DNA of 17,055 nucleotides from Prevotella sp. (GTDB lineage: Bacteria; Bacteroidota; Bacteroidia; Bacteroidales; Dysgonomonadaceae): the NCBI GenBank assembly GCA_031285625.1, contig JAITVV010000005.1:1-17055 (forward strand), read 5' to 3'. Of the stretch, positions 1 through 16,505 are shown piece after piece. The notes under the pieces were generated by a model. It was not told where the DNA came from, ran no database searches, and was given only the letters and a program-made list of their open reading frames with translations. The stretch's first letter is position 1. Each line of letters opens with the position of its first letter. Made by a program: the position numbers and the translations under genes.

Positions 1-290
1 GGATGGTGCAGATAATATATAATCATTTAATTATGATACACATACAAGATTATTGCAAGTATGTTATTGCTCGAAAAGAACTACATAAAGAGATGGATAA
101 CGATACAAATCACAGATGGGTTTTCGTTCGGAGTTCGAAGACTCTTCCTTGTTTTTATAAATACACTGCTGTCACTTGAATATCGTTATTTTCCTGTCAT
201 TTCTTTATCTTTTCACCCCGTTTTTTTATTACTTTGCATTGAGAAACGGTTTTGATTATCTCATACACCTTTATGAAATTATATAAAACT

Positions 291-2003
291 ATGGATAATA
301 CTCGGGAATTATTATGCTATTCTATTTTTATATTGCTCGTATTCTGCGTTGTTTCGTGCAAAAAGACAGGCAATGCGGATAGGGTATTGACGACAGTAGA
401 AAATATAGTGGAACAATATCCTGATTCAGCACTGATTCTTCTTGATTCGATTTCCAATTCCAATAATTTAAGCGATAAGGAAGAGAATCTTTATCGGCTG
501 TTGCAAATTCAGGCAAAAGATAAAACCTACAAAGACATAACTTCCGATACGGTAATTTTTCAGGTAAGGGATTATTATAAAGAGAAAAATGATGCGGAGT
601 ATTTGGCTTTGGCTTCATTTTATTGTGGGCGAGTGCTGCAATATCAGCAGAAGGATACGCTTGCAATAAATGAGTATTTGCAAGCAGGAATATATGCCGA
701 ACGCACAGAAGATAACATGCTCAAAGGGTTGATAGAAAGTTCTATGGGAGCAATTTTTTCAAGTGAACTCGTCGAGGCGGAAGCAATCAAGCATTTTATG
801 AAAGCCAGCCACTATTTTCATAGAGCCAAGCACACTAAAAACGAAATTATCACTTATAATCAGATAGGTAATGCGTATTTAAAAGGGTCGAAGAATGACA
901 GTGCCTTCTATTATTATAACAAAGGACTTGAATTGGCTAAGGCCACCAATGACAGTTTAGAGATAGCAGCTCTCACACACTGTCTTGGCATTGCATACAG
1001 AGAAACACGTCAGTTTGACTTGGCGGAAAAATATATCAGGGAAGCTTCGAGATACACTAACAACAATGATGATGAAATAAAACAATATTTAAACCTGTCA
1101 AAAACTTTCTATGCAAAGAACGTGCTGGATTCGGCAAAAATATATATCAACAAGTCGTTATCTCTTTTGTCGGACAACGAGAATGCTTTTGTTGCAGCCG
1201 AAATTCATCTAACGCTTTCTGAAATATTGGAAAAACAATCCGACTTTAATCAATCGTTGGATTATTACAAACAATATACTACTTACTTTAAGAAAATTCT
1301 CAGTGAAAACACAGGTAAAGAGATAGCCGATCTTAAGGCAAAATACAATAATGAACGACTGCAAAACGAAAATGGCAGATTAAAAGTCCGTTCACTGCGA
1401 ATTATCTTATTCTCATCGGTTGCATTACTCGTGGGTTGTTTAATAATTTTGGGGTTCTACTTGAAGTCAGTACAACAAAAACGGATTGTACTGAAAAAAG
1501 AAAATGATTTATTGGAAAAAGAAAATGAACTGTTAGAAGCCCGAACAAGAATATCTCAATTAGTAGAGATGGCCGAAAGCTATAATAATAAAGTCGATTC
1601 GGACAGGAATCTGTTGCTGCACCATTTTGATATTTTAAAAAGAGTATCCTTGTTGAAGCAATACTTAAGAGAGGATGATGAGCAATCACAGCGTTTAGTC
1701 AAGAAATTCAACGATATTGTTTACGGACAGGAATCGATGAATTGGGAGCTGCTTTATCAGGATATGAATAGTATACACAATGGATTGTTTGACCGTTTGA
1801 AAGAACAATGTCCCGAACTCGATGAAAACGAATTCCGCATATGTTGTATGGCGTATGCCGGCTTTACCTGTTCCGAAACAGGTATTATTATAGAATTAAG
1901 TACTCATACGGTAGAAATGAAACGCTCTTCCATTCGAAAAAAATTGAGAATAGAGCCAAAAGGTAGTTTGCGAACTTATCTTACATCCCTGTTTGGCTCA
2001 TAA
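291..2003 (+). CDS. Membrane-spanning TPR-repeat sensor/transcriptional regulator with C-terminal LuxR/GerE-like HTH
   Basis: Lipoprotein-like signal (..ILLVFCVVSC), multiple TPR-like helices (e.g. YNQIGNAYLKGSKNDSAFYYYNKGL), one TM segment (IILFSSVALLVGCLIILGFYL), coiled coil, then the C-terminal HTH (PELDENEFRICCMAYAGFTCSETGIIIELSTHTVEMKRSSIRKKL). The track starts at TTG 252; ATG 291 (taaaactATG) gives a normal-length signal peptide, and ATG 273 is an alternative. Confidence 0.85.
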   Translation: MDNTRELLCYSIFILLVFCVVSCKKTGNADRVLTTVENIVEQYPDSALILLDSISNSNNLSDKEENLYRLLQIQAKDKTYKDITSDTVIFQVRDYYKEKNDAEYLALASFYCGRVLQYQQKDTLAINEYLQAGIYAERTEDNMLKGLIESSMGAIFSSELVEAEAIKHFMKASHYFHRAKHTKNEIITYNQIGNAYLKGSKNDSAFYYYNKGLELAKATNDSLEIAALTHCLGIAYRETRQFDLAEKYIREASRYTNNNDDEIKQYLNLSKTFYAKNVLDSAKIYINKSLSLLSDNENAFVAAEIHLTLSEILEKQSDFNQSLDYYKQYTTYFKKILSENTGKEIADLKAKYNNERLQNENGRLKVRSLRIILFSSVALLVGCLIILGFYLKSVQQKRIVLKKENDLLEKENELLEARTRISQLVEMAESYNNKVDSDRNLLLHHFDILKRVSLLKQYLREDDEQSQRLVKKFNDIVYGQESMNWELLYQDMNSIHNGLFDRLKEQCPELDENEFRICCMAYAGFTCSETGIIIELSTHTVEMKRSSIRKKLRIEPKGSLRTYLTSLFGS

Positions 2004-2007
2004 AAAA

Positions 2008-2101
2008 CCATACCCCTACCATATCGGCTATTTTTCAATCACCTATTAATCACCGATCTATCTATTTTCACTCCCCCAAAAAGCCATATCCCTACCATAC
2101 C
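2008..2101 (+). repeat. Two copies of the direct repeat CCATAYCCCTACCATAYC; probable activator binding sites
   Basis: CCATACCCCTACCATATC at 2008-2025 and CCATATCCCTACCATACC at 2084-2101, 76 bp apart. Each copy has an internal CCATA period of 11 bp. The second copy abuts the predicted -33 element. Confidence 0.75.
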
Positions 2102-2104
2102 CTA

Positions 2105-2135
2105 TTGTGACATATAAGTGCTGTTTATAAATTTG
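2105..2135 (+). promoter_or_regulatory. Bacteroidota sigma-A type promoter
   Basis: TTG (2105-2107), 20-nt spacer, TAAATTTG (2128-2135), matching the -33 TTTG / -7 TAnnTTTG consensus. It lies 33 nt before the ATG at 2169. Confidence 0.75.
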
Positions 2136-2168
2136 CCACATCATAACATTATAAACTAACAAAGAGTC

Positions 2169-2531
2169 ATGAAGAAGGTCTTTTTTCTATTATTAATTTT
2201 ATTATCCGCTCATGGAAATATGCTTTATGCAGATGAAAGTAAGAATGTTGAATTGGAAGGAGATTTACTATCTAACGGAACACGCTCCCTTTCCTCTCTT
2301 ATTTCAGCGGTTAGCTATTCGGATTATATAAAAGTAAACTTCGCAATTCCTTTGGATGAAATTTCTATCCGGATCTATGATGAGAGGAATGATATTGTAT
2401 ATGAAGATATGGCGGATATTTCTATTCAAAGCAGTGTAATCAGTACAGTGTTATTTGAAACAGGAACATATAGGATCGAATTTACAAATTCACAAGGCCG
2501 ACATTTAGAAGGAAGCTTTGTGATTAAATGA
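2169..2531 (+). CDS. DUF3244-like secreted small beta-sandwich protein
   Basis: Signal peptide MKKVFFLLLILLSAHG, and the pattern ISIRIYDE..IVYE...GTYRIEFTNSQGRHLEGSFVI typical of Bacteroides DUF3244 proteins, which often neighbour TPR-HTH regulators. Confidence 0.75.
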   Translation: MKKVFFLLLILLSAHGNMLYADESKNVELEGDLLSNGTRSLSSLISAVSYSDYIKVNFAIPLDEISIRIYDERNDIVYEDMADISIQSSVISTVLFETGTYRIEFTNSQGRHLEGSFVIK

Positions 2532-2570
2532 AAAGAACGATCCATCAACACTAACCTTCATAATCAGTTA

Positions 2571-2852
2571 ATGAAAAAGGATTTTGTTGTTGAAAATGAT
2601 TCATGCCTATATATCATAGGAGGGAAACATGAAAGTTTTGTTTTTCAAGCAAATAATATAGTCAAAGTGTGTAATATTTCGATAGACGAATGCTCGATGC
2701 TAATATGTAACAACATAGATTTCATTCGAATAAATAAGCATGTGATTATAAATACAAAATTTTTCAGGCAACTGAATAAAGGAAGAGAAATAGTGATGAA
2801 AAACGGTACGATATTCAAAGTATCACGCCGTTGTGTTTCATTATTTAAATAA
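2571..2852 (+). CDS. Stand-alone LytTR DNA-binding domain protein
   Basis: FIRINKHVIIN and IVMKNGTIFKVSRR match the LytTR motifs F.R.H.S.IVN and L.NG..L.VSR. No receiver domain; 93 aa. Confidence 0.75.
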   Translation: MKKDFVVENDSCLYIIGGKHESFVFQANNIVKVCNISIDECSMLICNNIDFIRINKHVIINTKFFRQLNKGREIVMKNGTIFKVSRRCVSLFK

Positions 2853-2931
2853 TCGGGAAACGTATGTACATACAATAACGGTGATGAGTATCCACCATTA
2901 GCTACTCAACATAATTTTTAATTTTACGATA

Positions 2932-3096
2932 ATGAAAGAAGTAAAATCAATTGAATTTTTGAACGAGATTGACGGACTTGAAAATGTAAGTCTTGACGAA
3001 GTAAAAGGTGGTATATCCTTAGGGTCTTACGCTGGCGGTTGTCCTTCAAATGACCACCAAGTCGTTCAACGCTCGAACGCAATAGCAGTATGCTAA
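2932..3096 (+). CDS. RiPP precursor peptide with double-glycine leader (54 aa, missing from the ORF track)
   Basis: Hand translation: MKEVKSIEFLNEIDGLENVSLDEVKGG|ISLGSYAGGCPSNDHQVVQRSNAIAVC*. The acidic 27-aa leader ends LENVSLDEVKGG. The gene lies directly upstream of the rSAM/SPASM gene and in a cluster with a C39 PCAT. Confidence 0.85.
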   Translation: MKEVKSIEFLNEIDGLENVSLDEVKGGISLGSYAGGCPSNDHQVVQRSNAIAVC

Positions 3097-3112
3097 TGCT
3101 TTGGTAGTGTAA

Positions 3113-3139
3113 AAAGGAGGGTAATTATTATCCTCCTTT
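3113..3139 (+). terminator. Stem-loop between precursor and maturase (partial terminator or mRNA stabiliser)
   Basis: AAAGGAGGGTAA-tta-TTATCCTCCTTT: 12-bp stem with one G:U pair, 16 nt after the precursor stop, and only a short U tail. Confidence 0.7.
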
Positions 3140-3218
3140 CAACATCCAACAATGATGAACTATTAAACAACTATTCTCTGAAGATGTATTTTTTTAAGTT
3201 ATATCAAATGTAAAAAAC

Positions 3219-4538
3219 ATGGAAACTAAAATATATTGGTCACAATTTAATCACATGTTCAATTCTGAAAAATATGGGCATATTCTTTATAATGCAGAAA
3301 CAAATGCTTTTGCTAACATCTCAATTGATTTATACAATTTGTTATTTGCCATAAGTAAAGGTGTAAAAGAGATAGAAGAATTGGATAATGCTACGATTGA
3401 TAATTTACTTCAAAGAAAGATTCTGGTAAAAGATAAGAATGATTATTTATATAGACGTCGGTTAAGGTATTATTTCCAAGCATTTGATACATCAAATTTA
3501 GGATTGGCCGTAGCTCCTACAACTGCATGTAATTTTATATGCCCGTACTGTTATGAAGATAATAAAGTTAATAAATACATGACAGAGGAAATAGAAGATC
3601 TCCTGTTAAAGTTTATCAGTGGGCATAGAAGAACTAATATTCTAAATTTAACGTGGTATGGTGGCGAGCCATTAATGGGGTTTAAATCTATACAAAGAAT
3701 TTTGGACGGATTAAAGAGAATAGATCATATCAAATTGGGTCTTCATAATATGCCTACAAATGGTTATTTGCTAACAAAAGAAGTCAGTCTATTTTTTAAA
3801 GAAAATCCAATGAATAGCATACAAGTGACCATAGATGGTGCAAAAGAACATCATGACAACTTAAGAATGCTTCCCGGTAATTTACCAACTTTTGATAAGA
3901 TCGTTTCGAACTTAGATACATTCATGGACTATAATCCTGATACACCTGTATTTATTAGAATGAATCTTTTAAATGACAATATTGACTCATATGGTAAAAT
4001 ACATCAGGAATTATCTTCGCATTGGAAAGGACGAGATGTATTAATATATCCGGCTTTTGTGAAAGATTTTAGCGATAGCTGCAAATCAAACTGTAACCTT
4101 GTAAGCAGGGAAGAAAAAATAGAGTTTTTTAAGGAGCTAAAAGATAAATATAAAATTGATGTACAATTTAAGCCGCTTAATTCCAGTACCGGATTATGTG
4201 GAGCCACTCATGTGAATTACTATGTAATAGGCCCTGAAGGTGAAATGTACAAATGTTGGAATGATCTTGGAGTGAAAGAGAAAATAATAGGATATATTGA
4301 TGGAAGAGAAAAAAACTATGATGTCTTAACTCGATATTTGGCCGGCCCAACGATTATGGATGATAAAGAATGTCAAGATTGTTCCATTATGCCCATATGT
4401 ACAGGCGGATGCTTATGGGTTAGACATAAGAATCTTTATGAAAATAAAGAACTTGATTATATGTGTTGTACAAGGAAAGATAATCTTGATAAGATTATAG
4501 AACTTCAATATGAAGAAACACTAAAAGCGTCATTATAA
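3219..4538 (+). CDS. Radical SAM/SPASM-domain peptide maturase
   Basis: CxxxCxxC (TACNFICPYC), WYGGEPL, QVTIDG, and SPASM cysteines (CGAT..GEMYKCW..ECQDCSIMPICTGGC..CC). The roughly 85-aa N-terminal extension is consistent with an RRE/PqqD-like leader-binding domain. Confidence 0.93.
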   Translation: METKIYWSQFNHMFNSEKYGHILYNAETNAFANISIDLYNLLFAISKGVKEIEELDNATIDNLLQRKILVKDKNDYLYRRRLRYYFQAFDTSNLGLAVAPTTACNFICPYCYEDNKVNKYMTEEIEDLLLKFISGHRRTNILNLTWYGGEPLMGFKSIQRILDGLKRIDHIKLGLHNMPTNGYLLTKEVSLFFKENPMNSIQVTIDGAKEHHDNLRMLPGNLPTFDKIVSNLDTFMDYNPDTPVFIRMNLLNDNIDSYGKIHQELSSHWKGRDVLIYPAFVKDFSDSCKSNCNLVSREEKIEFFKELKDKYKIDVQFKPLNSSTGLCGATHVNYYVIGPEGEMYKCWNDLGVKEKIIGYIDGREKNYDVLTRYLAGPTIMDDKECQDCSIMPICTGGCLWVRHKNLYENKELDYMCCTRKDNLDKIIELQYEETLKASL

Positions 4539-4559
4539 GAACTATAAAAAATATAAAGG

Positions 4560-6917
4560 ATGAGATCTATACTGCTTTTTTTTGTCATACTCTTATTTTC
4601 AATTACTCCGATTTTTGCACAAATAACCATCAAAGGTAAAGTAACTAATGAAAAGGCATTACCTGTAGATTATTTTACGATTGAGATACTTAATCGTATA
4701 GATTCATCTTTTGTAATGGGGGGAGCATTTGTCGATGGAGAATTTCAAATTGATGATATAAAAAATGAAAAATATATTTTCAAGTTCTCCAGTTTGGGGT
4801 ATTACGACCTAATAAAAATAGATAATGCTCAAACGATAAACAACGGAAACTTTCAGTTGATTGAAAAATCTATATCTCTTGACGAAGTGGTAGTAGTGTC
4901 AAGATTGCCTAAAGTTATTAATAAGGCGGATAAATATGTAGTGGAAGTTGAAAATACCTCTATTAGTGATGCCGGTAATGCTATCAATGCACTTAGCAGG
5001 ACACCTTTTGTCATAGTGGACAGGATAAATAATGAAGTTACAATAGCAGGAAAAGGAACAACATTAATATTGGTAAATGGCAGACGGATAACAAATCAGC
5101 AGGAGCTGGAAATGCTTAATTCACAAGATATTAAAGAAGTTGAAGTTATTGAAAATCCATCAGCCAAATATGAAGCTGAAGGCCACAGTGTTATTAATAT
5201 CATCACAAAGAAAAAAAGTGAACATGGAGTAAATATAAATCTTCAAACTATCTATACGAGAGGCAGGCATAATAGTGGTAAAACATTAGCAGGTTTCACA
5301 TATGCAAAGGAAAGGTTTGTTTTTTATACTCAATATGGTTATAATGCAGATAATAGTGAAGGATTTAATTCTTCTGATGAGAAATATGAAAAAGATGGTC
5401 GTTCTTTCATTATGAAACAAAAGAATCTCGATAATTTATACGAAACACGATTGAATGAATATTCATTGGGAATTAATTACGACCTCACAAAAAATCAAAC
5501 TATTGGAGTGAAATATGACGGATATTATGGAAACATTTATTTCAACACCATAAATAAAATGGATGTAATCTTCAATGGTAACGAAATCCCGACAGAATTA
5601 TCTTACAAAAATGGCAAGAATAAAATTCAAAAAGATGGGATAAACTTAAATTACAATTTTAGCAACAATCTATTTGAAGCATCCTTAATAGGCGATTATA
5701 CAAAATCTAAAGGGAAATCCGGTTTTAATATTGATGAAACGGATAATGATAATAGTTATCACAATTTTAAATTGTATGATTGGCAGGCAGATTATGACTT
5801 GTATTCAGTCCAATTTGATAGCAGGATACCATTAGAAGCGATAGGAGCATCAATAGAAGGAGGAGGCAGATATTCTTATGTTAAGAGCAATAATAACAGT
5901 AATTTTTTTGATAAGGCAGGTAATAGCTGGATATTGAATGATGAATTTAGTAGTCAAGTAGATTTTAATGAAAGTATTTTGGGTACATATGCTTTATTGA
6001 GTGGAAAAATAAAAGATAGAACACAATATTCAATTGGTTTGCGATATGAATATTCAGAAAATAAGAACAAATGGGATGTTAATAATGACTCTATAAATAA
6101 AAATCATACCAGCAATTTTTTTCCGAGCTTACTTATAACACATAGGCTCAAAGATGATCTGTTACTGAGATTATCTTTCTCAAAGCGTATCTCCCGTCCT
6201 TCTTATGAAGTTTTAAATAATACGGTACAATATATTAATTCTTACTCCAATCAACAGGGTAATCCGTATCTTAAATCAGCAATCTATAACACAATTTCAT
6301 TTTCATCTCAAATAAAAAGGATCAACGCTTCTATTAATGCTTCATATATTCAAAACCCGAATGATTTATTGTATTTAAACGATCCAAACCAAATTGAAAG
6401 ATATACATGTATGCGAATAAATACGGAAAACAGGTGGTCGTTTGCCTTTAATCTGAGTTCTTCTTTCTCATATAAAAAATGGAGTATTCAACCCTTTTTT
6501 AGTCTGACATATATGAAAAGAGCAATTATAGAAGACGGCATAAAATATACAACAGATTATCCCGGTATTTATTTAAGCTTGAGAAACAGTTTAAATCTTT
6601 ATAAGAGCCTTGATATGGATTTTGACATGACATATAATAAGCCATCCCATAGCTTTAAAACATTTAACGACCAATATATTTTCAATCTATCTCTCCGACA
6701 AAAATTATTTAAGGATCAATTAACCATACAATTAACGGGTAATTATACACCGACTAAATGGGAACAAAAATTAGACTACAGCTATAAGTATATTGATTTT
6801 GTATGGGATGGAGATGATAGAAAACAGTTAATATTAAGTGTAAAATATAATTTTAATACAGCTAAAAAACAGTTCAAATCGAAGGCGTCCAATATGGAAG
6901 AGCTTAATAGAATGTAA
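4560..6917 (+). CDS. TonB-dependent-receptor-like outer membrane beta-barrel protein
   Basis: Signal peptide, carboxypeptidase-regulatory-like N-domain (ITIKGKV..), LDEVVV, plug motif (IKEVEVIENPSAKYEAEGHSVINIITKK), SKRISRPSY / GNPYLK, and a terminal strand LSVKYNF with a short tail. Confidence 0.88.
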   Translation: MRSILLFFVILLFSITPIFAQITIKGKVTNEKALPVDYFTIEILNRIDSSFVMGGAFVDGEFQIDDIKNEKYIFKFSSLGYYDLIKIDNAQTINNGNFQLIEKSISLDEVVVVSRLPKVINKADKYVVEVENTSISDAGNAINALSRTPFVIVDRINNEVTIAGKGTTLILVNGRRITNQQELEMLNSQDIKEVEVIENPSAKYEAEGHSVINIITKKKSEHGVNINLQTIYTRGRHNSGKTLAGFTYAKERFVFYTQYGYNADNSEGFNSSDEKYEKDGRSFIMKQKNLDNLYETRLNEYSLGINYDLTKNQTIGVKYDGYYGNIYFNTINKMDVIFNGNEIPTELSYKNGKNKIQKDGINLNYNFSNNLFEASLIGDYTKSKGKSGFNIDETDNDNSYHNFKLYDWQADYDLYSVQFDSRIPLEAIGASIEGGGRYSYVKSNNNSNFFDKAGNSWILNDEFSSQVDFNESILGTYALLSGKIKDRTQYSIGLRYEYSENKNKWDVNNDSINKNHTSNFFPSLLITHRLKDDLLLRLSFSKRISRPSYEVLNNTVQYINSYSNQQGNPYLKSAIYNTISFSSQIKRINASINASYIQNPNDLLYLNDPNQIERYTCMRINTENRWSFAFNLSSSFSYKKWSIQPFFSLTYMKRAIIEDGIKYTTDYPGIYLSLRNSLNLYKSLDMDFDMTYNKPSHSFKTFNDQYIFNLSLRQKLFKDQLTIQLTGNYTPTKWEQKLDYSYKYIDFVWDGDDRKQLILSVKYNFNTAKKQFKSKASNMEELNRM

Positions 6918-6927
6918 AAAACAACTC

Positions 6928-9126
6928 ATGAAATTCCCTTTTTACAAGCAGCTTGATGCAATGGATTGTGGGCCGTCATGCCTACGAATGATATCTTCGT
7001 ATTACGGAAAAAAATACTCGTTAAATATGTTCCGTGAACTCTGCTATCAAAGTAAAGATGGTGTTTCATTACAAAATATTAGTTATGCAGCAGAAAAAAT
7101 CGGATTTAAAACAATCGGTGGAAAATTCACTCTTGATATTTTAGTTAATAAAGCACCTCTGCCATGTATTATTTTTTGGGAGCAAAGACATTTTGTTATT
7201 GTATATGATATAAAAAAAAGAGGAAAGGATTATGTCTTCCTGATAGCAGATCCGGGAAAAGGAATAGTCAAATATTCATTAAAAGAATTTCTACCCCATT
7301 GGAGCAATAGTGACTCTATATTAGAAGCAAGAGGAATTGGACTCTTTTTAGAACCAACCGATGAGTTTAGAAATGAAAATAATGAGCAATACATTGAAAA
7401 GAGCACATTCGGATTTTTGACGGGATATTTTTTGAAATACAAAAAATATTTTGGGCAATTGATTTTAGGTCTAATTTTCGGGAGTCTTATTCTGCTAATA
7501 CTACCTTTTCTAACTCAATCAATTGTAGATACAGGTATATCTTCTAAAGATATAAGTTTTATCGTATTGATATTAATAGCCCAATTTACACTATTATTGA
7601 GCAGTACGTTTATTGATTTATTAAGAAGAAGAGTGCTTCTCCATATTAGCACCAGAATAAATATATCACTTATCTCTGATTTCTTTATTAAATTAATGAA
7701 ATTGCCCATGTCTTTCTTTGATACAAAACAAATTGGAGATTTGATTGAACGTGTTGATGATCATGATAGAGTACAGCGATTTCTTACGACCCAGAGCTTA
7801 GGCTTACTATTTTCCGTTTTTAATATCGCTATTTTCGGAATAGTTTTACTGATCTACAACTTGCATATCTTTTTGATATTCCTTATAGGAAGTGTCTTCT
7901 ATTGTATTTGGGTAATACTATTTTTAAACAAAAGAAGATTGCTGGATTATAGAAGATTTGAACAGCAAGGGATAAACAAAGGAAAGGTGTATCAATTGCT
8001 GAATGGCATGCAAGAAATTAAGCAACAAGGATGTGAACAACGGAAGAGATGGGAATGGGAAGAAACACAAGCGGATTTATTCAGTATTGACAACAAATTA
8101 CTATCCTTGCAACAAACACAAAGAGTCGGGTCTATTTTTATATCTGAATTTAGAAATATTCTAATAACATTTACTGCCGCAACTGCTGTAATAACAGGTG
8201 ATATGACACTCGGTATGATGCTTGCTGTTCAATATATCATTGGACAGTTGAATAGTCCGGTAGATCAGGTAATGAATTTTGTATATGATTATCAGGATAT
8301 CAGTATTAGTTTTGAAAGGATGCAAGAAATACATGAAAAAACAAACGAAGAATCTTGTAAAAATGAGATTGTATCCTTGCCTTTAGAAAAGTCGATAAAA
8401 ATAAACAACTTATCTTTTCAGTATGAAGGGCCGACCAGCCCTTTTGTCTTATCGGATATTAATTTAGAAATTCCGGAGGGTAAGGTTACTGCTATTGTAG
8501 GTGCAAGCGGAAGTGGAAAAACTACGCTCTTAAAGTTACTCTTGGGATATTACACACCGATTAAAGGTGATATTTTTATTGGAGATTTACCTCTTTCTCA
8601 ATTTAGTAAAAGATTTTGGCGTGTTCAATGTGGTGCAGTTCTCCAAGATGGATACATCTTTTCTGACACAATAGCAAGGAATATTGCCGTTTCAGACGAT
8701 ACACCGGAAAAAGAAAAACTAATGAAGGCGGTATCTGTGGCAAATATAAAAGAATTCATTCACAAACTCCCATTGTCATTCAATACAATAATAGGACAAG
8801 ATGGGCAGAACCTAAGTCAAGGTCAAAAGCAAAGAATTTTAATATCACGGGCCGTATACAAAGATTCTCCATTTTTATTTTTTGACGAAGCGACAAATTC
8901 TTTGGATGCTAATAATGAAAAAGTAATATTGGAAAATCTGTCTAAGTTTTATAAAGGAAAAACTGTTATAGTTGTCGCTCACCGACTAAGTACAGTTATG
9001 AATGCTGATAAAATAGTCGTTATAAACAATGGTAAAATAGTGGAAGTAGGTACTCATGAAGAATTGACAGCATTGCAGAAGGAATACTTTCATCTTGTCA
9101 AAAATCAGTTGGAGTTAGGTAATTAA
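6928..9126 (+). CDS. Peptidase-containing ABC transporter (C39 PCAT, double-glycine leader exporter)
   Basis: QLDAMDCGPSCL (catalytic Cys), WEQRHFV (His), IADP (Asp), TM domain, Walker A GASGSGKTT, signature LSQGQKQR, Walker B FLFFDEATNSLD, and AHRLST. Confidence 0.96.
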   Translation: MKFPFYKQLDAMDCGPSCLRMISSYYGKKYSLNMFRELCYQSKDGVSLQNISYAAEKIGFKTIGGKFTLDILVNKAPLPCIIFWEQRHFVIVYDIKKRGKDYVFLIADPGKGIVKYSLKEFLPHWSNSDSILEARGIGLFLEPTDEFRNENNEQYIEKSTFGFLTGYFLKYKKYFGQLILGLIFGSLILLILPFLTQSIVDTGISSKDISFIVLILIAQFTLLLSSTFIDLLRRRVLLHISTRINISLISDFFIKLMKLPMSFFDTKQIGDLIERVDDHDRVQRFLTTQSLGLLFSVFNIAIFGIVLLIYNLHIFLIFLIGSVFYCIWVILFLNKRRLLDYRRFEQQGINKGKVYQLLNGMQEIKQQGCEQRKRWEWEETQADLFSIDNKLLSLQQTQRVGSIFISEFRNILITFTAATAVITGDMTLGMMLAVQYIIGQLNSPVDQVMNFVYDYQDISISFERMQEIHEKTNEESCKNEIVSLPLEKSIKINNLSFQYEGPTSPFVLSDINLEIPEGKVTAIVGASGSGKTTLLKLLLGYYTPIKGDIFIGDLPLSQFSKRFWRVQCGAVLQDGYIFSDTIARNIAVSDDTPEKEKLMKAVSVANIKEFIHKLPLSFNTIIGQDGQNLSQGQKQRILISRAVYKDSPFLFFDEATNSLDANNEKVILENLSKFYKGKTVIVVAHRLSTVMNADKIVVINNGKIVEVGTHEELTALQKEYFHLVKNQLELGN

Positions 9127-9129
9127 GTT

Positions 9130-9807
9130 ATGAAAGCGGAAGAAATAGAATTGCAACTAAGAAGCGAAAAAGTTCGAAATATAGTTGGAGAGATTCCCTC
9201 AACCATAATGAGATATGGTTTATATATCATTATTATGTTTGTTTCTGTGATTTTCTTTTGTTTATCTATCATTCCAATTCGTGAACAGTATACAACTGAT
9301 ATAGTAATAAAATCAATACCTGAAAATGATATAATAACCTCCCCTATTGATGGACAAATTAATTATTCGATTGATGACAATCGTAATATAAACATAAATG
9401 AGGAAATAGGGCGGATTATCAACAATGATACAACATGTATAATTTATAGTAAAATATCCGGAATGGTAATTCGGAATCAGAAAAATAAAACGCATATAAC
9501 TCAAGATGATATTTTATACGAAATAAAACCGAACTATACTCAATACTTGTATGGCGAAATCTTGGTGCCAATTGATTTTATTAATAAGGACTATAATTCT
9601 TTTGATGTTGAGATTGTTACTCGTGAAGGTAATACAGTAAAAGGGGAAATAACACATATATATGAGATATTGGTAAACGAAGGAAGTGATCAATCGTATA
9701 AAGCGGACATATTAATTGACAGTAAGGCTTCTTTGCAAATAAATCTTATTTGTAAGGCTATCGTTACAATAAAGAGTGAGAGATTGATAAACAAAATATT
9801 CAGATGA
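9130..9807 (+). CDS. Short HlyD-like membrane fusion/adaptor protein
   Basis: N-terminal LRSEKVRNIVGEIP plus a TM helix, typical of Bacteroidota PCAT-associated HlyD proteins; lipoyl-like half motifs (ITSPIDGQI, IYSKISGMV). Starts 3 nt after the PCAT stop. Confidence 0.72.
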   Translation: MKAEEIELQLRSEKVRNIVGEIPSTIMRYGLYIIIMFVSVIFFCLSIIPIREQYTTDIVIKSIPENDIITSPIDGQINYSIDDNRNININEEIGRIINNDTTCIIYSKISGMVIRNQKNKTHITQDDILYEIKPNYTQYLYGEILVPIDFINKDYNSFDVEIVTREGNTVKGEITHIYEILVNEGSDQSYKADILIDSKASLQINLICKAIVTIKSERLINKIFR

Positions 9808-9851
9808 TGGCTTTTATATTTAGTAACCGTATGATTAAAAAAGGCATTAAC

Positions 9852-10415
9852 ATGAAGTATAATCTAAAGTATCCAACGTTGTTTCTTTTCTTATTTCTAT
9901 CTATAAGTAGCATCATGGCTCAAGTAGATTATATAGAAAAGAGAAACAATGTAGGCGATATTCCATTTAATCCGGACACAGATGATTCTTCGTTTGAACT
10001 GATAGACGAAAATAATATATTACCGTATAATATGGTATGTGGTTTTCTTATCGAAGGTGAAAAATATAGGGTTGTGGATTATTTTAATGAGAAATTCAAA
10101 TCTGATACCATTATAGGGGCTAACGGATATATAACGATACGATTTATTGTAAATTATAAAGGAAAAACAGATCGGTTTAGGGTTTATGAAATGGACAATG
10201 AATATAGACAAATTAAATTCCCCGAAAACATAACACAATCTCTTTTGGAGTTAACAAAAAAAATAGACCGATGGATTACCTCATTGGATTATAAATTAGA
10301 CCGTTACAATTGTATAGAGATAATGGATAATGGAAATAAAAAATATTTATATGATTACTATCAATATATCTTATTCAAAATCAAAGATGGACAAATTGAA
10401 ACGATTCTACCTTAA
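9852..10415 (+). CDS. Exported hypothetical protein with a TonB C-terminal-like segment
   Basis: Starting at ATG 9852 gives a clean signal peptide (MKYNLKYPTLFLFLFLSISSIMA|Q); the track starts at 9804. GYITIRFIVNYKGKTDRFRV resembles the TonB_C pattern G.V.V.F.V...G.V. Confidence 0.6.
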   Translation: MKYNLKYPTLFLFLFLSISSIMAQVDYIEKRNNVGDIPFNPDTDDSSFELIDENNILPYNMVCGFLIEGEKYRVVDYFNEKFKSDTIIGANGYITIRFIVNYKGKTDRFRVYEMDNEYRQIKFPENITQSLLELTKKIDRWITSLDYKLDRYNCIEIMDNGNKKYLYDYYQYILFKIKDGQIETILP

Positions 10416-11238
10416 ATCAATATTGTTGTGTACTTTTTTATTCTGGTTCGAAGGACAAACTTTCGGACAAACAAATTGCCAGGCTTTATTTGAGAAAGAT
10501 TCTCCGGAATATTGCGCATGTATGTTGATATATGGAGGTGATGCCATCAAAGGAAAGGCTCGCTATCAAGGTTCAAAAGAGTCACAGGCTTTATGTGATT
10601 CTGCTATAATGCTTTTTCCTTCGTTTGCGGATTCTTATTATATAAAAGCCATTCCATTTTTAAAAAGAGGCGAATTCGGTTTATGGAAAACAATTATTGA
10701 TAAGGCGGTAGAATATGATTCTCTATTATATTTGGGATATAGAGGAGGTGCACAATTTATGTTTTTAAGAAATTATGAAGGAGCAATAAAAGATATTGAA
10801 ACCTTAAAGTCCATATATAAATCGGATATAGGCGCCATCTATAATGGTGAATACCATTTGGAAATAATAAGGTCTTTATCTTATAAAGGGTTAGGAGATA
10901 CCATTCAAGCTATAAAAATTTTAGAGGATCATATAATTGAATATGAGGCAGGTCTTTATGGATATTATCATTTAGGAGTAATGTACTTTGAAGAAAATAG
11001 ATATTTAGATGCTATAAAAACATTCTTAAAGCAATCCGCATCTTACGATTTTGCAGATCTTAATTATTTCATTGGACTGTCTTATAAAAATATAGGAGAA
11101 GATGATAAATATAAAAAGGCGATTCAAAAGGCTTATGATTTATATCTGGAGGGTCGAATGCTTTGCGGTAATGGAAGTTTTATGGACTATCCGGATAAAG
11201 TTTATTTGAAGCAAATCAAGAAAGCTATGATTCAGTAG
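10387..11238 (+). CDS. Exported TPR-repeat protein with Cys-containing N-terminus
   Basis: Probable start ATG 10387 (track gives 10330), signal peptide ..ILLCTFLFWFEGQTFG|Q, TPR-like repeats (YYHLGVMYFEENRYLDAIKTF; NYFIGLSYKNIGE). Overlaps the upstream gene. Confidence 0.7.
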   Translation: MDKLKRFYLKSILLCTFLFWFEGQTFGQTNCQALFEKDSPEYCACMLIYGGDAIKGKARYQGSKESQALCDSAIMLFPSFADSYYIKAIPFLKRGEFGLWKTIIDKAVEYDSLLYLGYRGGAQFMFLRNYEGAIKDIETLKSIYKSDIGAIYNGEYHLEIIRSLSYKGLGDTIQAIKILEDHIIEYEAGLYGYYHLGVMYFEENRYLDAIKTFLKQSASYDFADLNYFIGLSYKNIGEDDKYKKAIQKAYDLYLEGRMLCGNGSFMDYPDKVYLKQIKKAMIQ

Positions 11239-11448: not shown

Positions 11449-11486
11449 AGTTTTCGGCTATCAAGCTGAAAACTGTTTTCTTTTTT
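11449..11486 (+). terminator. Intrinsic terminator-like hairpin just upstream of rteC
   Basis: AGTTTTCGGCT-atca-AGCTGAAAACT (11 bp, one G:U pair) followed by GTTTTCTTTTTT. Confidence 0.55.
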
Positions 11487-11510: not shown

Positions 11511-12183
11511 ATGAAAAGGTTCATTTCAACGAAGTTTATCCATACATTACGGGAAGCTTCACAAAAAGGCATCGATGCAGATGTCGAAGTATTGGAAAAC
11601 AGATACGAGGAGTTCGTCCGACTCTTGTTCTCTCAGTGTACTATCCTATCCGACAGGGCGGCGTGCTATAACACATTAGTTTATACCCACGCCGAACTTG
11701 CAGGTTTGACAGTGGTATCGGGAAAAAAATGCAGCTTATCTTAGGAAAGCTCTCGAACTTATAGAGTCCGAATTAGAACTACTCAAATTAAAGATTCGAC
11801 ATCCGGAACAATTTACTGCGTCGTCCGCCTCTCTGCCTTTGCCCGAAAAATGTCCAAAACAAACAGAAAAAACCAAGGATTCGGATTTTCAGTTGGAATG
11901 GACGGATGATGTCATCAAGCTGCTGGAGCTGGCATTATCTGTTCACAGAGCACGGTCAATCAATCATGGCAAAATATCTATTACGGATGTCGTGAACTTC
12001 TTTTTCAAGCAGTTTGGCCTGAAGCCCGGTAATTTCTTTTCTACCTATGGTGTCATGCGCACCCGAGCCGGAAGCCGTACCAAATATTTAGATGAACTGA
12101 AAGCGGGATTGGAGGAGAAAATGGATGAGGATGACAGAAAAGAGGAGGTACAAAAGAACGATGTAAGGAAAGGACGCAGGTAA
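11511..12183 (+). CDS. rteC: RteC-family regulator of conjugative-transposon excision/transfer, split by a +1 frameshift at about 11720-11730 (recoded gene or pseudogene)
   Basis: The 3' ORF has the RteC-like pattern LEWT..LLEL..SINHG..I..FF..F..Y..MRTR..SRTKYLDEL...M. Its frame is open from 11710 and reads NAAYLRKALELIESELELLKLKIRHPEQF upstream of the track start. Removing one A from the A7 run joins both ORFs into 223 aa. Confidence 0.78.
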
Positions 12184-12311: not shown

Positions 12312-12818
12312 TTATTTCCACTTTTTTAAGCGAATGCCCATTTCTCTCACAAGTTCGGCATTATTTTGATAGACTATATTTGTTCGTATCAGAAATTCCA
12401 ATTTAGAAGCGGCGTCCAATGGTGACAGAGAATCACATTCTACTAATCTATCGAATATCCAAAGCATTCCATGATATTCGATAGAGCTTTTCTTAGCACA
12501 AGTCCTCACAGCCTTATCGCTACTTAAAACCATCGCACCTATTTTTTCAGCAAGGAATAATACTGTCTTGTCATTTTCGGATAATGCTTTGGGATAATTT
12601 TTCTCTTGCATTTTTATTCTATCCTCTGCCGGTAGATTATGAATGGTTAATTTCCCAACAGAGTGAAATGCGGATAAAATATCTTGCTGTTGAGGATATA
12701 ATTCATTAAAAACATCCAAAGAAGTGTGTATCTCCATATCCAAAGAAAATAGGAGATTGGTTAGTTTCAGGTTATGCAAGTCTATAAAAATGCACGCATC
12801 CGTAATAGCGATTCTCAT
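12312..12818 (-). CDS. PIN-like domain protein (putative ribonuclease toxin)
   Basis: N-terminal IAITDACIFIDL, VFNEL, LSENDK and LSSDK supply the PIN-type acidic residues. ATGA overlap with the upstream peptidase gene. Confidence 0.78.
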   Translation of the reverse strand: MRIAITDACIFIDLHNLKLTNLLFSLDMEIHTSLDVFNELYPQQQDILSAFHSVGKLTIHNLPAEDRIKMQEKNYPKALSENDKTVLFLAEKIGAMVLSSDKAVRTCAKKSSIEYHGMLWIFDRLVECDSLSPLDAASKLEFLIRTNIVYQNNAELVREMGIRLKKWK

Positions 12819-13882
12819 TGCACTGTAGTGATTTGTTTATGAAAATCTATCAGAGATTGGTTGTTTAATACGGCAGCCTTATTCATAGATATGAGTTCTT
12901 CTGCTAATGCCCTAAATAACAACTGGGTAAAGCGATTTGATTCTTCCAGCCCGGTGTATTGTACAGGTTCTATGATTTTCCAATCATTGTGCAGAATTAT
13001 ATATACTAATTGATTCAGATGAGTTTCTGAAATAATATTGAGATCTTTACACCTGTACATTAAAGCCTGAATTGAAATTCCATATTGCTTTTTCAACTCT
13101 CCCAATTCTTGGATAAACAGTTTTTTTCGGGCTATTCCCAATTCCTTTTGAATGGCCGCTTTAGGAATCAACATGGCTGCTGCAAACTGATTACAATATT
13201 TTTCTTTCATTTTATCGGAAAGTTCCCCTAACGGAAGTAGCAAATGGCCTAATTCGTGTAATACCGTAAACCGGATTCTGTCTGCTGATTTTAACTTATT
13301 CTCGTTTATTACAATAACGGGAATCGTTTGATTGAGCCAAGTTTGCATGCCGTCAAAACTGTCTTCCGAATGAACTAAAACAACTTTGATGTGATTATCT
13401 TCCAATAATTCAATCGTGTTGTAAATAGGGTCTAAACCCAAATTCCAAGAATTTCTAACTTGCAATGCGGCTTCTTCAATAGCTTCAATAGCTTCAATAG
13501 AGGAAATTACGGGGAATTCTTTCAGAGGGTTTTCAAAATTGGTTCCAATTCCCAGTATTTCTTCCAACTCCAGATAGCGGGACAATACATCCTTAGTGTG
13601 TTCGACGATCTTATTCTGTTCTTTTACGGGTAGTTTTGTCAGCTTTCTAAACTCCAAATTCCCTAACTCAACTTTTGTATCCCTGAAAAAGAAGTCGGGC
13701 TGCACATGAAGTGCCTTACTTAAATGGCTGATCATCTCACTGTCCGGGATGACCTCTCCTTTTTCATATTTATGTAGTGCTTGACGGGATATTTTGTTAC
13801 CGAGAGCATCCGCTAAATCTTGTAATGAGAATCCATTTAAGATACGGGCAGATTTAAACCGTTCCGAAAATAACATATTCAT
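12815..13882 (-). CDS. XRE-family HTH fused to an ImmA/IrrE-family Zn metallopeptidase (COG2856-like)
   Basis: ERFKSARILNGFSLQDLA..ISRQALHKYEKG (XRE HTH), RIRFTVLHELGH (HExxH), EKYCNQFAAAMLIP, and YGISIQALMYR. Confidence 0.92.
   Translation of the reverse strand: MNMLFSERFKSARILNGFSLQDLADALGNKISRQALHKYEKGEVIPDSEMISHLSKALHVQPDFFFRDTKVELGNLEFRKLTKLPVKEQNKIVEHTKDVLSRYLELEEILGIGTNFENPLKEFPVISSIEAIEAIEEAALQVRNSWNLGLDPIYNTIELLEDNHIKVVLVHSEDSFDGMQTWLNQTIPVIVINENKLKSADRIRFTVLHELGHLLLPLGELSDKMKEKYCNQFAAAMLIPKAAIQKELGIARKKLFIQELGELKKQYGISIQALMYRCKDLNIISETHLNQLVYIILHNDWKIIEPVQYTGLEESNRFTQLLFRALAEELISMNKAAVLNNQSLIDFHKQITTVQ
13474..13500. repeat. 9-bp tandem repeat x3 within the HTH-peptidase gene
   Basis: CTTCAATAG at 13474, 13483 and 13492; encodes IEAIEAIE on the minus strand. 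Confidence 0.85.
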
Positions 13883-14153: not shown

Positions 14154-15272
14154 ATGAGCGATACAAAAATAAGTCCGAAGAACCAAAATCTCCTATGGGC
14201 AATTTCTGGTGGAAGATGTGAATATGCAGGATGCAATAAAATTTTGCATACAGACATTCTGACCAACAAAAAGCGTAATAGTGCCTACATTGCCCATATC
14301 GTTGGTGATAAACCCACCGGGCCGAGAGGCGATGAAGAGCGATCGAAGTTATTGGCAAATGATATCAATAACTTAATGCTACTTTGCGATACACACCACA
14401 GAATGATAGATGACGAGATTATATATACAGAAACTTGCCTTCTTGAAATGAAGCGGCAGCATGAAGAACGTATCAGACGAATAACTGATATAGCACCTAA
14501 TATGTCCAGTGAAATAATCTTATATGGGGCGAATATAGGAATTAACAATGCTCCCTTGTCCTACCAGTCAGCTTGTGAAGCTTTGTTACATGATTATTAT
14601 CCGGCAAGCGACAGTGCCATAGAATTGAGATTGAAGAATGTGCCATTTACGGATGATACCGATACCTATTGGAAAATGGAAGAGGCTAATCTTTGTGAAC
14701 AATTTAAGCTACAGATAAAGCCTCGATTGATGCAAGGAAATACCGACCATTATTCTGTATTCGCACTTGCACCGCAACCGTTACTTGTAAAATTGGGAGT
14801 TTTGTTGAATGATTTGAATAACGTGAAAGTATATCAAAAACACAGGGAACCTTCCACATGGAAGTGGCAAACAACTTCTCCTGATATTGAATATATCCTT
14901 CGTGAGCCTGCTGATAAGACGAAAGTTCCTGTACTCGTATTTAGTTTGAGTGCGACAGTAACATACGATAGAATACAAAAAGCGTTGGGGGGTAATGCAA
15001 GTATATGGGAAATCACAATAAGCGGTACTCCCCATAACGATGTTTTAAAAACAGAAGTATTGTTGTCTGATTTTCGTTGTATCGTCAGAAATACTTTTGA
15101 CAAAATAAAATCTCATCATGGTTGTACGGAATTACATATTTTTCCGGCGATGCCTGTTTCTGCATCCGTTGAATTGGGTAGAGTCTGGATGCCCAAAGTT
15201 GATATGCCTATGGTAATATATGATGCGAACAAGGCAAAGAACGATTTTTACAAGACAATAACAATAAGATAA
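14154..15272 (+). CDS. cap5: CBASS effector, HNH endonuclease-SAVED (Cap5-like)
   Basis: GRCEYAGC..IAHIV..GPRG..NLMLLCDTHHRMID (Zn-binding HNH) and a C-terminal SAVED domain (FALAPQPLLVKLG, VYQKHR, LHIFPAMPVSASVELGR). Adjacent to the CD-NTase. Confidence 0.9.
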   Translation: MSDTKISPKNQNLLWAISGGRCEYAGCNKILHTDILTNKKRNSAYIAHIVGDKPTGPRGDEERSKLLANDINNLMLLCDTHHRMIDDEIIYTETCLLEMKRQHEERIRRITDIAPNMSSEIILYGANIGINNAPLSYQSACEALLHDYYPASDSAIELRLKNVPFTDDTDTYWKMEEANLCEQFKLQIKPRLMQGNTDHYSVFALAPQPLLVKLGVLLNDLNNVKVYQKHREPSTWKWQTTSPDIEYILREPADKTKVPVLVFSLSATVTYDRIQKALGGNASIWEITISGTPHNDVLKTEVLLSDFRCIVRNTFDKIKSHHGCTELHIFPAMPVSASVELGRVWMPKVDMPMVIYDANKAKNDFYKTITIR

Positions 15273-15278
15273 ATAGAT

Positions 15279-16505
15279 ATGCTAACGCAAGAAGAAAAAA
15301 AACAATTCAGTGAAATTTTAGAAACACTCGGCGAAACATTAGATATTACGGAATCCCAATATAAAGCCGCAGTTAGTAGTTATGGAGCTGTAGGCGAATG
15401 GCTGGCAAAACCCGAATCATCACTTGCTCCGTATAAACCTATTATTCGTCCACAAGGCTCATTCATGCTCGGAACAATGATTAAGCCTGTCTGTGAAGAA
15501 GATGATTTGGATATTGACTTAGTATGCGAATTGACTGGTAAGAATCCACAATGGACGCAATATCATCTCAAACAAGCCGTAGGAAATCGACTTAAGGCAA
15601 ACGAAACTTACAAAAACATGCTTGATAAGGAAGGTCGAAGGTGTTGGACATTAGAATATTCCGACAGTGCCAATTATCACATGGATATACTACCGAGCCT
15701 TGTTTGTAACGGATATGGTACTGTGCTTGAGAGAGCGTTTTCAGCTACAGCAATGGACAAAAACTATGAATCATTAGCAATACGTATTACCGATAATAAG
15801 CAAGACAACTATTATACGGACACAGTTGCCGAAAATTGGATGAAAAGCAATCCATTCGGTTATGGTAGGTGGTTTTTCAATGCGGCTGATGTTAGTACAC
15901 TACGCAGAACCATAATGTTATCGGATGCTGTAAATCCTGTTCCGAAGTATAATAAAGAGAAGTTGCCGCTTCAACGGGTAGTTCAAATTCTGAAACGACA
16001 TCGGGATATGATGTTTAATGGAGATGAACACAAACCTATTTCCATAATTATTACAACATTGGCTTCAAGAGCATACGGCAAAGAAACGTCCATTATTGAC
16101 GCATTAACGAATGTGGTTACCAATATGCGGAATGATATCGAAAGCCGTTATGATTCAAATACTGGCAGGATGGTTAAATGGATTCCAAATCCGGTGAATC
16201 CTGAAGAAAATTTCGCAGACAAATGGGTAGAACATCCTCAAAGGGAAAAGAATTTCTACAAATGGCTTGACCAAGTTGAATCTGATATACAAACCATTGT
16301 TCAGAAACGGGGGTTGCAATATATAGCTGACGCGATGAAAAAGCCTTTTGGAGATCAAGCTGTTACAAAAACCTTCTCCACTTTAGGTGAGAGGAGCCTT
16401 AATCTTCGGGAAAGTGGAACTCTAAAAATGGCAACAAGAACAGGTATCCTTAGTTCGGTTGGTTCTGTAACTGCTGCAGCACATAATTTTCATGGCAATG
16501 ATTAA
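15279..16505 (+). CDS. cGAS/DncV-like nucleotidyltransferase (CD-NTase, probably CdnG-like)
   Basis: PQGSFMLGTMIKP..DLDIDL, GRRCWTLEY, HMDILP, SNPFGYGRWF, QILKRHRD, PISIIITTL, NPVNPEENFADKW, and a C-terminal tail HNFHGND. Confidence 0.93.
   Translation: MLTQEEKKQFSEILETLGETLDITESQYKAAVSSYGAVGEWLAKPESSLAPYKPIIRPQGSFMLGTMIKPVCEEDDLDIDLVCELTGKNPQWTQYHLKQAVGNRLKANETYKNMLDKEGRRCWTLEYSDSANYHMDILPSLVCNGYGTVLERAFSATAMDKNYESLAIRITDNKQDNYYTDTVAENWMKSNPFGYGRWFFNAADVSTLRRTIMLSDAVNPVPKYNKEKLPLQRVVQILKRHRDMMFNGDEHKPISIIITTLASRAYGKETSIIDALTNVVTNMRNDIESRYDSNTGRMVKWIPNPVNPEENFADKWVEHPQREKNFYKWLDQVESDIQTIVQKRGLQYIADAMKKPFGDQAVTKTFSTLGERSLNLRESGTLKMATRTGILSSVGSVTAAAHNFHGND

Follow-up and report, generated by a model that had tools for sequence, protein, structure and literature searches.

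SusR-type regulators are inner-membrane proteins that couple a periplasmic sensor to a C-terminal cytoplasmic DNA-binding domain, and in the available part of PMC3878776 SusR-like regulators are predicted to bind direct repeats with centres 67 or 77 bp apart. In Bacteroides thetaiotaomicron a MACPF cluster starts with the pair BT_3442/BT_3441, of which the first is a multi-domain tetratricopeptide repeat (TPR) protein and the second an Ig-like protein of the DUF3244 type (PMC2954219). Bacteroidales clusters with genes for a radical SAM enzyme, a peptidase-containing ABC transporter, a membrane-fusion protein, an outer-membrane protein and TPR proteins have been described in silico; the accessible sections of PMC10352776 present nine of them with GG-motif precursors, note the TPR genes and cite the idea of pheromone binding by TPR proteins. 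Here, we compare these systems with a locus of Prevotella sp. (Dysgonomonadaceae, assembly GCA_031285625.1), which lies on contig JAITVV010000005.1. The window, i.e. this entire contig of 17,055 bp from a 4.8-Mb genome (94% complete), carries ten plus-strand genes between 252 and 11238 with intergenic gaps of −4 to 165 bp, in the order regulator (REG), DUF3244, LytTR, precursor, radical SAM/SPASM, barrel, C39-ABC exporter, HlyD-like protein and two secreted proteins. Very probably, the operon, which serves a modified peptide and its traffic through the envelope, is driven here by a SusR-like sensor-regulator. The system combines known kinds of components, namely a radical SAM cluster for a peptide that is ribosomally synthesized and then modified (RiPP), a SusR-type regulator and an Oar-type transporter. 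All genes named in the original prediction, which had read the DNA as a candidate peptide-signalling circuit, were found on the plus strand. Its statement that no such system is characterised in Bacteroidota holds for experiments, but such clusters and their parts were already listed in silico in the sections of PMC10352776 mentioned above.

The REG gene (252/273-2003, plus strand) matches TPR families of Pfam and the NCBIfam family BT3442_fam. Its reading frame of 583 aa, with ATG 273 as the likely start, has two hydrophobic segments and no more. The first is a signal ending in a lipobox Cys, which is nearly invariant among the aligned homologues, and the second a helix that spans roughly residues 379-408. 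Since the lipobox signal is followed by this single helix, the TPR domain is placed in the periplasm. The AlphaFold2 (AF2) model (pLDDT 83.5) is all-helical; its TPR superhelix is followed by a single very long helix and by a small C-terminal domain of helices. The part between the membrane helix and the helix-turn-helix (HTH) domain is listed as coiled coil, and a profile of the C-terminal 140 aa retrieved the HTH domains of StyR, VraR, RhlR, FixJ, RcsB and GerE from the PDB (best E 2.7e-6). REG is predicted to be a lipoprotein-anchored periplasmic TPR protein with one membrane helix and a cytoplasmic C-terminal HTH of the LuxR/FixJ/NarL type. The same layout had been proposed before, and both the hydrophobicity and the HTH profile support it.

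With the RRNPP receptors (Rap, NprR, PlcR, PrgX, Rgg) REG shares the TPR superhelix and, in principle, the coupling of TPR to a DNA-binding domain. RRNPP proteins are cytoplasmic, sense peptides imported by Opp and carry their HTH, where present, at the N-terminus, whereas REG is membrane-bound, with a TPR domain predicted to be periplasmic and a C-terminal HTH of the LuxR type. The alignment to BT3442_fam (NF053779) spans the whole family model (positions 6-559 of 563), but the score of 149.7 bits is far below the cut-off of 940; as judged from this score REG is a distant relative of BT3442_fam and not an equivalog, and the cargo of BT_3442/BT_3441 differs in being MACPF/pore-forming proteins (PMC2954219). 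BT3442 is absent from the five SusR paralogues listed in the available part of PMC3878776, and REG is likened to SusR by layout and operator geometry. Like SusR, members of the REG family often neighbour a TonB-dependent transporter. In contrast to SusR systems, the window contains neither a SusC/SusD pair nor glycoside hydrolases in a Pfam scan, the cargo consists of a peptide cluster or, in related loci, of toxins and MACPF proteins, and REG is accompanied by a DUF3244 gene.

Downstream of REG two copies of a 16-mer, CCATAYCCCTACCATA, were found on the plus strand 76 bp apart and upstream of a promoter. The distal copy (CCATACCCCTACCATA, 2008-2023) begins 5 nt past the REG stop codon, and the proximal copy (CCATATCCCTACCATA, 2084-2099) ends 29 nt before the −7 box and thus abuts the −33 region. 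The promoter is of the Bacteroidetes type (2105-2135, plus strand). It consists of a TTG (2105-2107) and, 33 nt ahead of the start codon of DUF3244, the −7 box TAAATTTG (2128-2135); we take TAnnTTTG to be the consensus. No further copy of CCATAYCCCTACCATA with up to 3 mismatches was present in the window, and shuffled controls gave 0.21 matches on average, with two matches reached in 4 of 200 shuffles. An additional exact copy of the distal repeat elsewhere in the same genome (G000:C37:97780-97795) was dismissed as coincidence, as it lies within a 358-aa minus-strand open reading frame (ORF) and has no partner copy. Of 15 homologous intergenic regions inspected, the window included, 12 have a TAnnTTTG box that precedes the start of DUF3244 by 23-60 nt. 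The next plus-strand TAnnTTTG lies at position 8307, in line with the claim that the precursor is preceded by no further box of this kind, although boxes with one mismatch exist at 2912 and 2919, just before the precursor, and at 3187 before the radical SAM gene. A sigma-70 promoter scan (57 sites against 64.9 expected) is not informative for Bacteroidetes.

The spacing of the repeats recurs in the family. We surveyed the 300 nt that follow the stop codon of the regulator for exact direct repeats with a length of 9 nt or more. In a first set, from which three near-duplicate loci and three that were too short or had masked bases had been dropped, 6 of 37 loci carried repeats at 75-78 bp, a bin picked after seeing the data; 300 shuffles averaged 0.33 such loci, with 3 as the highest count, so that none came up to 6. 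In an independent set of loci from named genomes, with six duplicates of earlier loci removed, spacings of 75-78 bp were seen in 13 of 42 loci and spacings of 65-68 bp in 8 of 42. For either bin 0 of 300 shuffles reached the observed count, and all other 4-bp spacing bins held 0-3 loci. The spacing of 76 bp in the window, and of 65 or 77 bp in 21 of the 42 related loci, resembles that of the operators predicted for SusR-like regulators (67 or 77 bp in the part of PMC3878776 cited above). The repeat sequences vary by locus around a core near AAAAG-NN-ATAT and, being locus-specific, fit cognate operators; together with its A-rich 5′ flank the proximal copy reads AAAAGCCATAT, which fits this subfamily consensus, and at a REG paralogue on contig C34 of the same genome the corresponding repeat reads AAAAGTCATAT. 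The two repeats, noted in the original prediction as abutting a consensus promoter, are likely the operator of REG; this agrees both with the long-spacer geometry after homologous regulators and with the predictions in PMC3878776.

REG is regularly followed by DUF3244, which is the first gene of the operon (2169-2531, plus strand; Pfam E 2.3e-10) and codes for a small secreted beta-sandwich protein. Close-subfamily loci were retrieved with a 4-row regulator alignment; a search seeded with the single regulator had given 72 pattern matches, of which 0 were confirmed. Of 49 loci with a regulator ORF, 29 have a small ORF right after it, and in 28 of these it is DUF3244. The corresponding number for a wider set is 12 of 20 small downstream ORFs, 6 of 23 candidates having been dropped. 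A complex prediction of the REG TPR domain (residues 31-372) with mature DUF3244 scored 0.00. DUF3244 proteins also match weakly (E ≤ 0.01) the Por_Secre_tail model, i.e. the C-terminal sorting domain of type IX secretion (T9SS), in 5 of 20 and 16 of 29 cases, and the DUF3244 fold may be related to this sorting domain.

At E ≤ 1e-10, with three candidates scored per genome, 196 of the 401 genomes sampled from the order have REG relatives, and the cargo of the REG/DUF3244 module is diverse. Among 108 downstream ORFs we counted RHS_repeat (5), SpvB (5), FG-GAP (5), Peptidase_S74 (6), barrel domains (2-5), T9SS-sorted proteins (4) and TcdB_toxin_midN (2). Proteins of ~2,000 aa are encoded a few genes past REG and DUF3244 in L099, L105, L109, L111 and L133 (Draconibacterium, Maribellus, Parabacteroides, Prolixibacteraceae), and the RHS_repeat, SpvB, FG-GAP and TcdB_toxin_midN matches of the tally, which holds no member names, are attributed to these five giant ORFs. 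In L114, L124 and L127 three or four REG paralogues form same-strand tandem arrays, with a DUF3244-sized ORF after the copy examined. A REG paralogue with 42% identity and its DUF3244 gene stand alone on contig C34 of the same genome. By these neighbourhoods the module is generic and also heads cargo without any peptide.

Maturase relatives have a patchy distribution; they were detected in 16 of the 401 genomes at E ≤ 1e-40 and in none of 4 other genomes of the same family. The core of radical SAM enzyme, barrel, peptidase-containing exporter and in part fusion protein is conserved in the majority of those loci whose length would reveal it, and the full order of the window from REG to the fusion protein recurs in genome G112 (L049). 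Variants of this order were observed in L085, L045/L090, L026 and L032; in L085 (Prolixibacteraceae) and L045/L090 (Bacteroides ihuae) the module stands with other radical SAM enzymes, and the REG family is also joined to such clusters in L168 and the L148 group. In one group of radical SAM loci REG is divergent and DUF3244 heads the operon. From this synteny, module and peptide clusters have been joined repeatedly, and neither needs the other. The expectation that homologous regulators recur with such clusters was borne out, but the same module also heads unrelated cargo. On the metagenome contigs L156, L165 and L167 long arrays with several barrel genes lie beside the radical SAM-barrel-exporter core, with repeated short matches to the first ~180 residues of the exporter (C39 peptidase region), which may be stand-alone peptidase genes or decayed cassettes.

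The precursor (2932-3096, plus strand) has 54 aa, comprising a 27-aa leader that ends in GG and a 27-aa core. Four orthologues with 72-78% identity retain the core stretch SYAGGCxx(N/Q)DHQ, and a Cys followed by Asp with three residues in between (CxxND motif) is present in all 5 of 5 orthologues, whereas the Cys at the C-terminus varies and is Ser in one of the four. The gene next to this Cys-bearing precursor encodes a maturase (3219-4538, plus strand) with the radical SAM core (Pfam Radical_SAM 3.9e-13) and a SPASM domain (NCBIfam SPASM 50.7 bits, cut-off 27), and precursors lie directly upstream of the radical SAM gene in most related loci. Like the enzymes of PapB/freyrasin ranthipeptides, the maturase is a radical SAM/SPASM protein that matches the PapB model (E 2.4e-35), and the conserved Cys and Asp correspond to Cys-X3-Asp, which we take to be the PapB motif rule. 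However, the score of 122 is below the PapB cut-off of 340, and the core has one motif instead of several. A single thioether ring in the peptide, by analogy to PapB, is our guess. Between precursor and maturase genes a stable hairpin without U tract was found (3113-3139, plus strand); the fold of 3090-3160 has −21.9 kcal/mol and a z score of −4.28, and 0 of 200 shuffles were as stable. It is a candidate attenuator or mRNA stabiliser.

The barrel gene (4560-6917, plus strand), separated by 21 bp from the maturase gene and by 10 bp from the exporter gene, encodes an Oar-type TonB-dependent transporter of 785 aa with matches to OMP_b-brl_3 (1e-51), Plug, TonB_dep_Rec_b-barrel and CarbopepD_reg_2. 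A sequence search against PDB chains gave 0 matches, but with the AF2 model (pLDDT 76.7) the top Foldseek matches were ChuA, Cir, PirA, FepA and BtuB (E ~1e-19, probability 1.00). At residue 107 the barrel carries LDEVVVV, and of 10 homologous barrels inspected, most have the related motif L-x-E-V-x-V, a candidate for the Bacteroidetes TonB box, directly behind their N-terminal domain. The modelled fold is that of a TonB-dependent transporter and not of a TolC-type duct. This differs from the accessible sections of PMC10352776, where the outer-membrane protein is read as a TolC-like exit and where the TonB-dependent fold, DUF3244, LytTR and the operator are not described.

The following genes encode a peptidase-containing ABC exporter (6928-9126, plus strand; Peptidase_C39 4e-30, ABC_membrane, ABC_tran), which is 46-63% identical to exporters of other clusters, and a short membrane-fusion protein of the HlyD family with 225 aa (9130-9807, plus strand). 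By itself the latter has only a weak Pfam match (E 0.005); it can, however, be aligned to homologues above the HlyD_3 threshold, i.e. the short form of L049 and both long forms. Compared to the long forms of 434-442 aa it lacks the coiled-coil hairpin of ~200 aa. A C39-ABC protein that cleaves a GG leader, adjacent to an HlyD-family protein, resembles the colicin V exporters (CvaB, CvaA, TolC; PMC10352776 in the sections available), but the window has a fusion protein without hairpin, no TolC-type gene in the Pfam scan and a plugged TonB-dependent barrel in the operon instead. Among 22 loci with a fusion protein, several of which are near-duplicates and whose related members are not independent, 18 have the short form (16 with barrel) and 4 the long form (1 with barrel).

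A precedent for export through such a barrel is Oar of Myxococcus xanthus, which shares the order of CarboxypepD_reg-type extension, plug and barrel with our protein and is required for secretion of PopC from the periplasm, so that the cargo leaves in a two-step route (PMC6434023 in its available part). There, the cargo is a protease without a linked ABC exporter or fusion protein, whereas for the barrel in the window export is an inference. We lean towards the barrel carrying the peptide outward across the outer membrane, for which we see about an even chance, because of its tight linkage with the exporter and with a fusion protein that has no hairpin, because no other outer-membrane route is encoded and because of the Oar precedent. 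Import, the role assigned by the original prediction, appears less probable, yet by no means negligible; the linkage of short fusion protein and barrel and the Oar precedent indicate that the barrel may export instead.

Between DUF3244 and the precursor lies the gene for a stand-alone LytTR mini-protein of 93 aa without receiver domain (2571-2852, plus strand; Pfam LytTR 24.8 bits, cut-off 22.6). Its homologues were found in radical SAM-peptide loci only (L049, L085, L030, plus two in L144); a hidden Markov model from four of the mini-proteins, all from radical SAM-peptide loci, was run on the 4,365 ORFs of 112 loci and detected no additional one. In L085 a 124-aa ORF (12557-12931), whose N-terminus by eye looks like a Bacteroidetes HU-type protein, lies between DUF3244 and LytTR. 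The LytTR gene of the window is followed by a non-coding block (2877-2908, plus strand) with the inverted repeat TGAGTA-N12-TACTCA (2885-2890/2903-2908), which is identical in 31 of 32 nt to 9701-9732 of L144, while the adjoining LytTR proteins share 34% identity. In the window the block continues the LytTR reading frame past its stop codon, but we rejected a coding role, since it is out of frame in L144. An Rfam scan of 1950-3300 returned a single chance-level snoRNA match (E 0.26), and the 20-mer 2877-2896 with up to 2 mismatches had 5 matches outside G000 in the 401 genomes, compared to 1 for the reversed control and ~4-5 expected, which we read as chance. The conservation suggests that the block is a candidate operator or promoter with dedicated control at the precursor, probably by LytTR.

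With moderate confidence we read these genes as one regulated production-and-export unit for a small radical SAM-modified peptide. REG would bind the two repeats 76 bp apart in a SusR-like manner and activate the promoter at 2105-2135, as suggested by geometry and family conservation. To judge from the spacing, the transcript would run through DUF3244, LytTR, precursor, maturase, barrel, exporter and fusion protein and probably on to a terminator-like hairpin at 11449-11484 (plus strand), where 11 pairs are followed by the T tract GTTTTCTTTT; this is the sole terminator-like site with a good T tract in the terminator scan and the probable 3′ end of the operon. The hairpin past the precursor gene could raise precursor mRNA relative to enzyme mRNA, and the 32-nt element may add a layer of control, most likely via the LytTR protein. 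The maturase would cross-link the conserved Cys of the CxxND motif, by analogy to PapB, whereupon the C39 exporter, as expected from its family, would cut after GG and free the 27-aa peptide into the periplasm. The hairpin-less fusion protein would assist the exporter but could not dock a TolC-type duct, and the Oar-type barrel would then take the peptide across the outer membrane. For the signal we favour a general competition or envelope cue at the TPR domain, and see the peptide as a factor in antagonism or competition, since in other genomes this module drives Rhs toxins and MACPF proteins.

Several observations weigh against this interpretation. TonB-dependent transporters are importers as a rule, and barrels of the same subfamily follow REG in the exporter-less loci L072, L077, L079 and L092, which would fit import with periplasmic sensing as in Sus. 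A REG-profile match lies upstream in 3 of 11 radical SAM loci of the order set and in 9 of 18 metagenome loci, counting those with at least 2.5 kb of upstream sequence, several of the metagenome loci being near-identical. In the closest orthologous cluster, L144 (radical SAM 74%, exporter 78%, precursor 78%, barrel 59% identical), two LytTR genes precede the precursor, and instead of a co-directional REG and DUF3244 a distant REG homologue lies on the opposite strand ~1.8 kb upstream of the first LytTR gene, so that the peptide genes can run without the exact arrangement of the window. The conserved block and the −7 boxes with one mismatch leave room for an independent precursor promoter. Moreover, no named radical SAM family claims the maturase, as every model stays below its cut-off (Clo7bot 206 bits against 600, PapB as above, TIGR04463 and CefB likewise), and operon, promoter and operator are read from sequence.

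These points lend different weight to the alternatives. In the loop of the original prediction the peptide, once exported, comes back into the periplasm through the barrel, binds to REG at its TPR domain and so switches on its own operon, a Sus-like form of quorum sensing. A peptide of 27 aa is too large for porins, and a periplasmic sensor of it would therefore need an importer, a role that a TonB-dependent transporter would serve. This would match the layout and operator geometry that REG shares with SusR-like proteins, whose inducers enter via an operon-encoded TonB-dependent transporter (PMC3878776 in the part available). The exporter-less loci with REG and barrel could then be receivers only, and in several lineages the REG/DUF3244 module does occur beside clusters of this kind. 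Peptide-binding TPR proteins are among the fold matches of the TPR model, Rap and NprR included (E ~2e-6), but the Rap and NprR chains rank 25-39 among generic TPR matches, and the resemblance is generic. With the hairpin-less fusion protein and no TolC-type gene, the barrel is the only encoded outward route, the closest orthologue L144 lacks a co-directional sensor, and the module heads Rhs/SpvB-type giants (5 loci), MACPF proteins (PMC2954219) or, on C34, nothing. This generic use with peptide-free cargo weakens the claim that the peptide is the ligand of REG, which we regard as doubtful. An autoinduction by Sus logic, in which the peptide is either retaken by the barrel or sensed directly in the periplasm, binds the TPR domain and activates the long-spacer operator, seems unlikely to us, and the loop with re-entry through the barrel as originally drawn is rather unlikely as well.

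The locus could also be a modular fusion of two units without joint sensing, REG controlling DUF3244 alone and the peptide genes being driven under LytTR from a promoter at the conserved element. The near-identity of the 32-nt block beside LytTR proteins of only 34% identity, the one-mismatch boxes in front of the precursor, the restriction of LytTR mini-proteins to radical SAM-peptide cargo, the two LytTR genes of L144 and the solitary REG and DUF3244 genes on C34 all point this way. However, there is no terminator-like site between DUF3244 and the precursor, the gaps there are only 39 and 79 bp, in L085 the gap of 24 bp between LytTR and precursor has no room for a promoter, and LytTR lies within the REG-driven stretch, so that at least a cascade is expected. 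We consider this separation improbable; the second control point weakens the idea of a single transcript but does not refute it. For this part of the original prediction the tight gaps, of −4 to 122 bp, and the sole good terminator at 11449-11484 speak in favour, whereas the arrangement of L144 and the 32-nt element suggest separate control of the precursor. A further possibility is a metallophore-like cycle, as in methanobactins, which are exported, bind metal and are retaken via a TonB-dependent transporter. An export system and a TonB-dependent transporter do lie in one operon here and the conserved C..NDH residues could ligate metal, but the cluster encodes neither an inner-membrane importer nor a periplasmic binding protein nor a metal-responsive regulator, peptides of the same scaffold differ widely in their cores, with one in L085 that is free of Cys, and the other cargoes of the module are weapons, which makes such a cycle very improbable. 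Methanobactins are mentioned in the accessible sections of PMC10352776 in another context only.

Past the fusion protein the ten-gene series ends with two secreted accessory proteins (9804-11238, plus strand), ORF9, for which no family was found and an Atlas look-up gave unnamed clusters only, and a TPR protein of 302 aa. Both have 52-54% identity to genes beside the L144 cluster, on the opposite strand there, and no counterparts were found in the other related loci. The G+C content of 252-11238 is 32.1% compared to 37.0% genome-wide. Downstream, an ORF at 11839-12183 (plus strand) matches only the C-terminal part of the RteC model (positions 127-219 of 219); RteC is, as we assume, a conjugative-transposon regulator. 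A gene with HTH_3 and Peptidase_M78 domains (ImmA/IrrE-like) lies with a 168-aa partner at 12312-13882 on the minus strand. It is followed by a CBASS-type defence pair (14154-16905, plus strand) of a SAVED protein (372 aa, E 1e-45) and then a CD-NTase/SMODS protein (408 aa), after which comes an overlapping 137-aa ORF of no family. Because of the low G+C content and these neighbours, i.e. the RteC fragment, the HTH/M78 pair and the CBASS pair, the peptide operon probably sits in mobile DNA or a defence island. The contig ends limit the view upstream, and nothing 5′ of REG is visible in the window. The organism is known from a metagenome-assembled genome alone, and a search of sequencing runs for the window found one run only, of DNA, labelled termite gut metagenome and perhaps itself the sample from which the genome came.

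Bacteroidales dominate gut communities, and we know of no peptide signalling system and of few regulators of antagonistic factors that have been characterised there. About half of the genomes sampled from the order have BT3442-like TPR/HTH regulators with DUF3244, frequently as several copies, and these regulators head toxins, pore-formers and modified peptides. For this regulator family we provide an operator model, in which locus-specific direct repeats with a core near AAAAG-NN-ATAT are placed ~65 or 77 bp apart. The linkage of barrel, peptidase-containing ABC exporter and hairpin-less fusion protein suggests either a new outer-membrane exit for peptides or a dedicated path of re-uptake. 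Related loci are carried by cultured bacteria, namely Bacteroides ihuae (L090) and Dysgonomonas species. If autoinduction were true, the loci with REG and barrel but without biosynthetic genes would be eavesdropping receivers, and Bacteroidota would have a first described case of quorum sensing by peptides, which would also give a function to the very large BT3442-like family.

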